From Shigella phage ESh36: a stretch of DNA of 64,000 nucleotides. Under the pieces are notes generated by a model that searched no databases, was not told the DNA's origin, and saw nothing but the letters and a program-made list of their open reading frames with translations. This document shows positions 32,401-34,139 of the stretch, piece after piece; the first letter of the stretch is position 1; every line of letters starts with the position of its first letter. The stretch is taken from sequence record ON528746. One strand, 5' to 3'. A program made the translations under genes and the position numbers.

Positions 32401-33330
32401 ATGTCAGGATATAATTCTCAGAATCCAAAGGAACTCAAAGATGTCATTCTAAGACGTTTAGGGGCTCCAATTATTAATGTTGAGTTAACACCCGATCAAA
32501 TCTACGATTGCATCCAGCGTGCCCTAGAATTATACGGTGAATACCATTTTGATGGACTTAACAAAGGTTTTCATGTATTTTATGTAGGAGATGACGAAGA
32601 AAAATATAAGACCGGAGTCTTCGATTTAAGAGGTTCAAACGTATTCGCAGTAACTCGAATTTTGCGTACAAATGTTGGATCAATAACGTCAATGGATGGA
32701 AACGCTACATATCCATGGTTTACTGACTTTCTTTTAGGAATGGCTGGTATTAATGGCGGTATGGGGACTTCTTGTAATAGATTTTATGGACCAAACGCCT
32801 TTGGAGCTGATTTAGGGTATTTTACCCAGCTTACCAGTTACATGGGAATGATGCAAGATATGCTTTCGCCTATTCCAGACTTTTGGTTTAATTCAGCAAA
32901 TGAACAACTCAAAGTCATGGGAAACTTCCAAAAATATGATTTGATTATCGTAGAAAGCTGGACTAAATCATACATCGATACAAACAAAATGGTTGGAAAT
33001 ACAGTAGGATATGGAACAGTTGGTCCGCAAGATAGCTGGTCATTATCTGAACGATATAATAATCCAGACCATAATTTAGTAGGTCGCGTTGTTGGTCAAG
33101 ATCCAAATGTTAAACAAGGTGCTTATAATAATCGTTGGGTGAAAGACTATGCTACAGCTTTAGCTAAAGAATTAAATGGCCAAATTTTAGCACGTCACCA
33201 AGGCATGATGCTTCCAGGCGGTGTTACAATTGATGGACAACGCTTAATAGAAGAAGCTCGATTGGAAAAAGAAGCACTGCGCGAAGAATTATACTTACTT
33301 GACCCTCCGGTGGGAGTGTTAGTTGGATGA
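32401..33330 (+). CDS. 13: neck protein gp13
   Basis: 309 aa, T4 gp13 length and position. Confidence 0.85.
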
Positions 33331-34139
33331 ATTATACTAAAATTTACAACTCTCTTATAGAAAGATCTCTTAAAAGAGGTCTTAATAAGAAAAAATTAGA
33401 TTATTATACAGAATCACACCATATTGTCCCAAAATCCATGGGAGGAGATGACTCTAGAGAAAACAGGGTTTTACTGACAGCAAGAGAACACTATTTTGCG
33501 CATGAGCTTCTTTTTAAAATACACCGAAATTCTGAAATGGCTTATGCCTTAATAAAATTCTCCAAGGGTACAAAAGAGCAGAGAATTGTAAGTAAAGATT
33601 ACGGATGGATTAAAGAGGAAACATCTAAAATTAGATCAGAAACCATTAAAAAGTTTTGGGCGAATCTATCACCAAATTTAAAACAGGAACGAATTAAAAA
33701 AGCCGGAAAAGGCATTAAAAAAACTAAATCTTTATGGACAGATGAAAAGAGAAAAGAAGTTAATGCAAATATTCGAAAAGCTTCTGTGAAATATTTGGAA
33801 TCGTTATCAGAAAACGAAATGTTAGAATATAAAGAAAGATGTTCTAAACAAATGAAAGATTTTTGGTCTGAGCTTAAAAGTGACCCCCAAAAATACGAAA
33901 AGTATTTAAATAAACTATCTAAGGGTCTTGCAAAAGTCGAAAAGAGAAATTGCCCGCATTGCGGAATTATATGTGATGTAGGAAATTATGGAAAATACCA
34001 CGGCGATAAATGCAAAGTTATCACGGGTGTATCTCATAGCAGAGAAAAATTAAAATGCCCGCACTGTTCTAAAATCATGGATAAGTCTCACGCTAAAAGA
34101 TACCATTTTGACAATTGCAAATTTAAGAAGGTCGAATAA
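33327..34139 (+). CDS. free-standing HNH homing endonuclease with C-terminal zinc-finger repeats
   Basis: 270 aa; N-terminal HNH core [36 protein letters not shown]; two CPHC...H..C repeats at the C-terminus; ATGA overlap with gene 13, ends 2 nt before the gene 14 ATG. Confidence 0.85.

Follow-up and report, generated by a model that had tools for sequence, protein, structure and literature searches.

The late-gene block of Shigella phage ESh36 (record ON528746; the whole stretch analysed, 64,000 nucleotides long, is referred to below as the window) follows the Tequatrovirus-type order 12, wac, 13, endonuclease ORF, 14, 15, 16, 17, in which the two neck genes 13 and 14 are separated by an open reading frame (ORF) for an HNH endonuclease. 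Both neck genes are complete on either side of this ORF; their products share 98% (gp13) and 99% (gp14) amino acid identity with those of T4, and gene 14 starts at the same ATG as in T4. The features of the junction are the following:

32401-33330, + strand: gene 13 (neck protein, head-tail adaptor; PHROG_211 head-tail adaptor Ad2, E 2.7e-43)
33309-33330, + strand: 3'-terminal stretch of gene 13 in recoded form, inseparable from the endonuclease ORF (14 versus 14 loci)
33327-34139, + strand: HNH endonuclease ORF, 270 aa
33328-34136, + strand: 809-bp insertion relative to the T4-type empty junction, which reads GG and then, past the insertion point, TTAATATGG (alignments to T4)
33411-33503, + strand: HNH catalytic core, residues 29-59 (E29, H31, H32, N46, H55, H59)
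33591-33932, + strand: five long helices, residues 89-202, a presumed DNA-binding repeat region (AlphaFold model)
33951-34013, + strand: first CCHC zinc-finger-like module (C209-P-H-C212, H225, C229; from the sequence)
34056-34118, + strand: second CCHC zinc-finger-like module (C244-P-H-C247, H260, C264; from the sequence and alignment)
34127-34132, + strand: Shine-Dalgarno-like GAAGGT for gene 14, inside the last endonuclease codons and 8 nt upstream of the ATG
34141-34911, + strand: gene 14 (neck protein, head closure; Pfam T4_neck-protein, E 1.8e-138)

With 270 codons in DNA of 33% G+C, and in view of the homologies found, the ORF at 33327-34139 is not a chance reading frame. Its ATG (33327-33329) shares its A with the final Gly codon of gene 13 and its TG with the gene 13 stop codon (TGA, 33328-33330; sequence GG-ATG-A), and the overlap with the gene 13 stop described in a first-pass annotation of this DNA can thus be read in the sequence as an ATGA arrangement. 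At the other end the TAA of the ORF occupies 34137-34139 and the ATG of gene 14 begins at 34141, so that the earlier description of an ORF ending 2 nt before gene 14 is right as an offset, the intervening sequence being the single base 34140. The identification of a 270-aa HNH endonuclease between these two genes also held, since its product exceeded the gathering cut-off of Pfam HNH_4 (24.4 bits, cut-off 22; E 2.8e-5) and matched PHROG_655 'homing endonuclease' with E 2.7e-52, and its flanks are genes 13 and 14. The two C-terminal CPHC repeats, already pointed out by the same annotation, are both legible in the sequence with identical C-x2-C-x12-H-x3-C spacing.

By sequence the protein belongs to the Mob family of T4, whose members are free-standing HNH homing endonucleases. 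T4 MobE aligns with it over its full length (33% identity in 247 aligned columns, E 6e-29), and the two proteins have in common the N-terminal signature MNYxKIYxxLI...ExHHI.P..GG...N.V.LTAREH..AH and, in a multiple alignment, the C-terminal CPHC...H...C, while RB7 MobD is 47% identical over 117 columns covering the N-terminal nuclease domain (E 5e-32). A translated search of 50,697 phage records located relatives in 1,092 of them, with nrd, primase, helicase and topoisomerase genes among their conserved neighbours; many of the relatives are annotated as Mob-like homing endonucleases. An alignment of 81 homologues showed no variation at E29, H31, H32, P35, G40, N46, H55 and H59, nor at C244, C247, H260 and C264 of the second CCHC module, which aligns with the MobE C-terminal segment CPHCGK...H.D.CK; the first module is absent from MobE and present in three orthologues from the same genomic site. 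Pfam NUMOD3, carried by many of the homologues, was not reached by the protein itself, and an NCBIfam search returned nothing meaningful. At the sequence level, the gene shows the HNH motif, the homology to characterised Mob proteins and the free-standing position at a precise empty site by which Mob-family members are recognised, together with a putative modular DNA-binding C-terminus.

The AlphaFold (AF2) model of the protein (pLDDT 88.8 overall) has its beta-beta-alpha core in residues 29-66, followed by five long helices (89-202) and two small zinc-ribbon-like modules, with pLDDT above 95 in the HNH core stretch. A Foldseek comparison of the whole chain with the PDB gave no significant match (best E 0.19); the consistent PDB matches were HNH structures only, the HNH stretch aligning to the HNH domains of a group II intron maturase and of Cas8-HNH. 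This architecture of an N-terminal HNH, a lysine-rich helical middle and a C-terminal CPHC...H...C is that of T4 MobE, as is the arrangement of the gene as a cassette between conserved genes, but the two differ in their location (a late structural site rather than nrdA/nrdB), in the number of CCHC modules (two versus one) and in length (270 versus 232 aa). The likeness to T4/RB7 MobD is confined to the nuclease domain, the first 117 residues, whereas the C-terminal half of MobD, whose gene lies in the nrdC region, is unrelated and without CCHC fingers. An HNH nuclease fused to modular DNA-binding elements, as predicted here, is also found in I-HmuI and I-TevIII, the latter likewise having zinc fingers, although the 13/14 ORF, unlike these two, is without an intron.

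Comparison of the junction across T4-like genomes defines the empty site and places the gene in a minority of phages. The insert is carried by 46 of the 519 Tequatrovirus records that hold the 13/14 junction (about 9%; both counts include RefSeq/GenBank duplicates), the junction being empty in T4, T2, RB18 and about 91% of the records. In T4 a single nucleotide separates the gene 13 stop from the gene 14 start and there is no ORF between them, in keeping with the earlier description of a T4 junction with no known gene. Genes 13 and 14 are also adjacent in all 11 more distant T4-like loci taken from IMG/VR. T6 is among the carriers, with DNA 100% identical to that of the window over 813 nt. When 14 carrier loci (the window and 13 others) were set against 14 empty ones, anchors in the two neck genes lay 814 nt apart in 13 of the 14 carriers, 813 nt apart in the remaining one, phage vB_EcoM_F1, and 5 nt apart in every empty locus. 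The insert accordingly measures 809 bp in the carrier loci examined, with the F1 copy 1 nt short. This 1-nt deletion (copy at L025:6528-7339 of the locus set) breaks the reading frame, the gene is annotated as two ORFs, and the F1 gene is a decaying copy. The matches in FN and SHFML-26 are 812 nt long and likewise carry a split, two-ORF annotation, and from these alignment lengths and annotations the two copies probably share the frame break of F1.

The ends of the insert are devoid of target-site duplications, flanking direct repeats and terminal inverted repeats. A 13-nt near-repeat was observed 43 nt apart, as GAAGAATTATACT at 33283-33295 within gene 13 and as GATGAATTATACT at 33326-33338 at the start of the endonuclease gene; it is probably fortuitous, or else could be a trace of the original illegitimate insertion. 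A group I intron with its intron-encoded endonuclease was considered and rejected, the ORF lying between two complete genes and an Rfam search of 31500-36000 with E up to 1 finding no family. The distribution of the gene is patchy rather than clade-like. The view of the first-pass annotation that this is a lineage-specific insertion is upheld with a refinement: the gene was indeed inserted at a junction that is empty in about 91% of records, but 'lineage-specific' understates its mobility, since its presence is independent of the haplotypes on either side and relatives of the gene are found at 13/14 in other groups of T4-like phages.

The neighbouring gene 14 has retained its expression signals despite the insertion. 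The Shine-Dalgarno-like GAAGGT lies within the last endonuclease codons and the TAA-T-ATG stop/start arrangement of the empty site is kept, on which grounds expression of gene 14 would survive the insertion, as the earlier reading of the locus had supposed. Orthologues of the endonuclease gene have purine-rich SD-like motifs at the equivalent place in all three cases (GGGGT, AAGGAGAG and AGAGGT). Promoter searches gave little of note: the exact late promoter TATAAATA is absent from the + strand between 25998 and 38086, where the matches inside the ORF all carry one mismatch, and sigma-70 and terminator scans remained at chance level. Predicted RNA folds were not more stable than those of shuffled sequences at the endonuclease start (z = 0.18), the gene 14 start (z = 0.48) or the T4 junction (z = -0.61), and a small CUCC/GGAG hairpin considered for the end of gene 13 was dropped, as the comparison with shuffled folds did not support it. 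Further upstream, in the intergenic region between wac and gene 13 (32368-32400), a perfect hairpin, GGGGCC-GCAA-GGCCCC, precedes AAAGGATTTTT immediately ahead of the gene 13 start; in the vB_Eco_NR1 record the counterpart of this stretch is annotated as a terminator.

The insertion is accompanied by a second, much smaller change that the first-pass annotation had not noted. Gene 13 ends with CC(G/A) GTG GGA GTG TTA GTT GGA TGA in carriers and with CCA TTT GGA ATT TTG GTA GGT TAA at empty junctions, the carrier type of the 18-nt tract being GTGGGAGTGTTAGTTGG, and because of these recoded codons gp13 terminates in PVGVLVG rather than PFGILVG (F304V, I306V). Recoding affects 8 positions within the last 18 nt of the gene. 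The sites at -17, -15, -11, -9, -6 and -3, counted from the endonuclease ATG, have the carrier state in 14 of 14 carriers and in none of the 14 empty loci, and gene presence is also perfectly associated with two further features of gene 13, its stop codon and base three of its last Gly codon. No other site within ±5.5 kb differs in frequency by at least 0.6 between carriers and empty loci, the highest remaining difference (0.57) being at position -18, which adjoins the tract. In the wider set of records the recoded junction was matched with 5 or fewer mismatches in all 46 carriers, and the full recoded tract was found on an empty junction in none of about 599 cases. The closest empty junction, that of vB_vPM_PD112 (L042:281-345), has two carrier-type changes, a G at -18 and a G at -11, the latter giving I306V in gp13, and may represent a possible intermediate or a partly resistant allele. 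Two of the recoding changes also create the motif GGGAG 10 nt upstream of the endonuclease ATG, for which reason the tract may serve translation of the endonuclease gene rather than, or besides, immunity.

Outside this tract, carriers and empty loci share the polymorphism of the flanks. When 5.5 kb on each side of the junction was aligned for the 14 carriers and the 14 empty loci, each group was as diverse internally as the two were divergent from each other, except in the last 250 nt of gene 13. A gradient of co-conversion was not detectable beyond 18 nt leftward, and rightward there was no linked site at all. In the same genomes pS was 0.060 for the endonuclease gene against 0.215 for gene 13 and 0.171 for gene 14, about 3-fold lower, while pN/pS of the endonuclease gene was 0.08, with 13 of the 14 copies intact. 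The window and T6 show no difference in 832 positions spanning the tract and the gene, yet the adjoining flanks differ at 14 of 232 positions on the left and 15 of 250 on the right (about 6%). From the low pS, the low pN/pS, the identity with T6 and the confinement of linkage to the tract it follows that the element is younger than the alleles in which it sits, is under purifying selection, and was transferred between diverged backgrounds while taking along hardly any of the DNA beside it. A neutral insertion of recent date, in a population that recombines extensively, could also account for the low diversity and the unlinked flanks. A separate pattern was seen 1-2 kb to the left of the junction, where a stretch of wac (31326-32326, within wac at 30910-32367) is 20-24% different between the window and T6, UKE3-1, sutha and a metagenome contig (loci L017, L023, L030 and L004) and only about 7% different from ESh24 and RPN226, genes 13-17 differing by 1-6%.

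Related genes at the same junction extend beyond Tequatrovirus. Three metagenomic T4-like contigs encode orthologues 51-57% identical to the ESh36 protein directly upstream of gene 14, in genomes whose gp14 and gp13 are 69-79% and 71-74% identical, respectively, and the two-finger architecture is common to all of these endonucleases. In Dhakavirus vB_EcoM_FB a 214-aa Mob gene (FB_0164, annotated 'hypothetical protein'; L045:2501-3145) lies between gp13 and gp14. The product resembles the ESh36 protein in this location and in its nuclease domain (53% identity over 107 residues), but its C-terminal half is unrelated and without CCHC fingers, and its stop overlaps the gene 14 start, unlike the ESh36 ORF, which stops before it. 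Given these three orthologues and the Dhakavirus Mob gene, the 13/14 junction is a recurrent site for this nuclease lineage. One homologue cluster (P0009, 214 aa, including a member in phage ESCO10) is 54% identical over 40% of the query and carries NUMOD3; the ESCO10 record gives its member the name 'baseplate hub subunit and tail lysozyme', which looks like a mis-annotation. One of the metagenomic contigs that has the 13/14 orthologue also has a further Mob-like HNH ORF between genes 14 and 15 (L039:1621-2217), encoding 198 aa with one C-terminal CPYC...H...C finger.

The window itself contains a second Mob-like HNH ORF (53648-54340, + strand, 230 aa) with NUMOD3-like GKHH/GRKHS motifs; in its N-terminal 157 residues it shares 34% identity with the 13/14 protein. 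It directly follows a 502-aa ORF (52143-53651; DNA helicase UvsW in matching records) and starts with a TTG that overlaps the preceding stop as TTGA, in the same manner as the ATGA at gene 13. Among 762 matching records the match was full-length in 48, most of the records listed covering only 66% of the ORF, and it is annotated 'homing endonuclease' in Yersinia phage PYPS2T.

Considered together, the likely interpretation is that the 13/14 gene is a free-standing Mob-family HNH homing endonuclease gene, carried as an 809-bp promoter-less cassette located exactly at the 13/14 boundary, and judging from its sequence it is probably active. The closest precedent is MobE, a promoter-less gene between nrdA and nrdB that is absent from T2 and whose product nicks the recipient nrdB about 120 nt inside the gene, away from its own insertion point; its inheritance is super-Mendelian, at about twice the input ratio, and is reduced without the HNH motif (PMC2790892; see also the review PMC2988022). 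By analogy, we infer that the 13/14 gene would be transcribed within the 13-14 message and its translation coupled to that of gene 13 through the ATGA overlap. On co-infection with an empty-junction relative, the helical repeats and CCHC fingers would let the enzyme bind that junction, a nick or cut would be made by the HNH site, and repair would copy the gene from the carrier genome. Protection of the carrier would come from the insert, which splits the site, and from the 8 recoded positions in the last 18 nt of gene 13, and the neck protein would continue to be made from the Shine-Dalgarno motif that the cassette itself provides for gene 14. Since a carrier must escape cutting its own genome and the only linked differences lie there, the recognition site should overlap the end of gene 13 and the junction, and most probably spans roughly CCATTTGGAATTTTGGTAGGTTAATATGG of T4-type phages. 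The target nonetheless need not be at the junction, as the off-site nicking by MobE illustrates.

An inactive or decaying relic, a former homer now spread as a passenger by the ordinary homologous recombination of co-infecting T-even phages, would equally produce flanks unlinked to the gene, given how high T-even recombination is, and it would sit well with the frameshift in F1 (apparently also in FN and SHFML-26) and with the presence of the gene in only about 9% of records. We regard it as unlikely, because a dead gene would not keep the constraint seen here: pN/pS is 0.08, and 13 of 14 copies retain all catalytic and zinc-ligand residues. Also weighing against a relic are a pS 3-fold below that of the flanks, identical copies in genomes whose flanks diverge by 6%, and orthologues that persist at 13/14 in divergent phages. 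A different possibility is that the nuclease is active but mainly benefits the phage, as a weapon against the neck operon of competitors or as a driver of local recombination or amplification. The late operon in which the predicted target lies is indeed an essential one, amplification of anti-defence genes is reportedly promoted by SegB in T6 (PMC13096335), and homing endonuclease genes mark boundaries of exchange in phages (PMC10448857). The sequence holds nothing, however, to separate such a role from plain homing, and no cargo gene is linked to the element, linkage reaching no further than 18 nt to the left and, to the right, no further than the edge of the insert; a benefit to the phage as the main function is thus considered quite improbable.

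Least credible, and given hardly any weight, is an accessory nuclease for packaging or morphogenesis, comparable to the HNH proteins encoded beside terminase and portal genes in HK97-like phages. Its appeal derives from the location of the ORF, which belongs to the late structural/packaging block and precedes the small terminase by two genes (gp16/gp17 at 35780-38090), but the gene is missing from about 91% of close relatives, with T4 and T2 packaging normally without it, and from all 11 distant T4-like loci. Its homologues, moreover, are Mob homing endonucleases located by nrd, primase, helicase and topoisomerase genes, and its long modular tail, predicted to bind DNA, is unlike the small HNH proteins associated with terminases. 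A terminase-associated factor in the manner of HK97 gp74 was rejected, the gene not being conserved among relatives that have the same packaging module.

The preferred reading, a homing endonuclease gene at 13/14, may be extended to a more specific proposal, which we advance tentatively and hold at somewhat less than even odds. The mobile unit would be a two-part cassette, composed of the gene and the 18-nt recoded end of gene 13, in which the recoded tract would confer immunity and impose F304V/I306V on gp13 with each homing event. The 13/14 junction would then be a recurrent target, recognised independently across Tevenvirinae genera by several Mob nucleases with swapped DNA-binding tails. 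If true, this would offer a natural system for studying how homing endonucleases are retargeted and how structural-protein variants are driven through phage populations.

The gene has already been annotated 'homing endonuclease' or 'HNH endonuclease' in T6 (YP_010067306.1, the same gene at the same site) and in dozens of records, 45 further Tequatrovirus records having it through pipeline annotations, and a literature search found no paper describing or testing a 13/14 endonuclease gene. It is best viewed as a real but fairly ordinary mobile element. Its interest lies in adding to the catalogue of Mob-type genes a well-defined late-structural site, one occupied by none of the five mob genes of T4, and in the unusually sharp prediction, drawn from the comparison of carrier and empty loci, of a recognition/immunity region of about 30 bp around the junction. 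Relatives at the same junction in other genera, with their different DNA-binding tails, would provide a natural series for the evolution of target sites, and the inheritance of markers around genes 13-14 should be distorted in T-even crosses and engineering.
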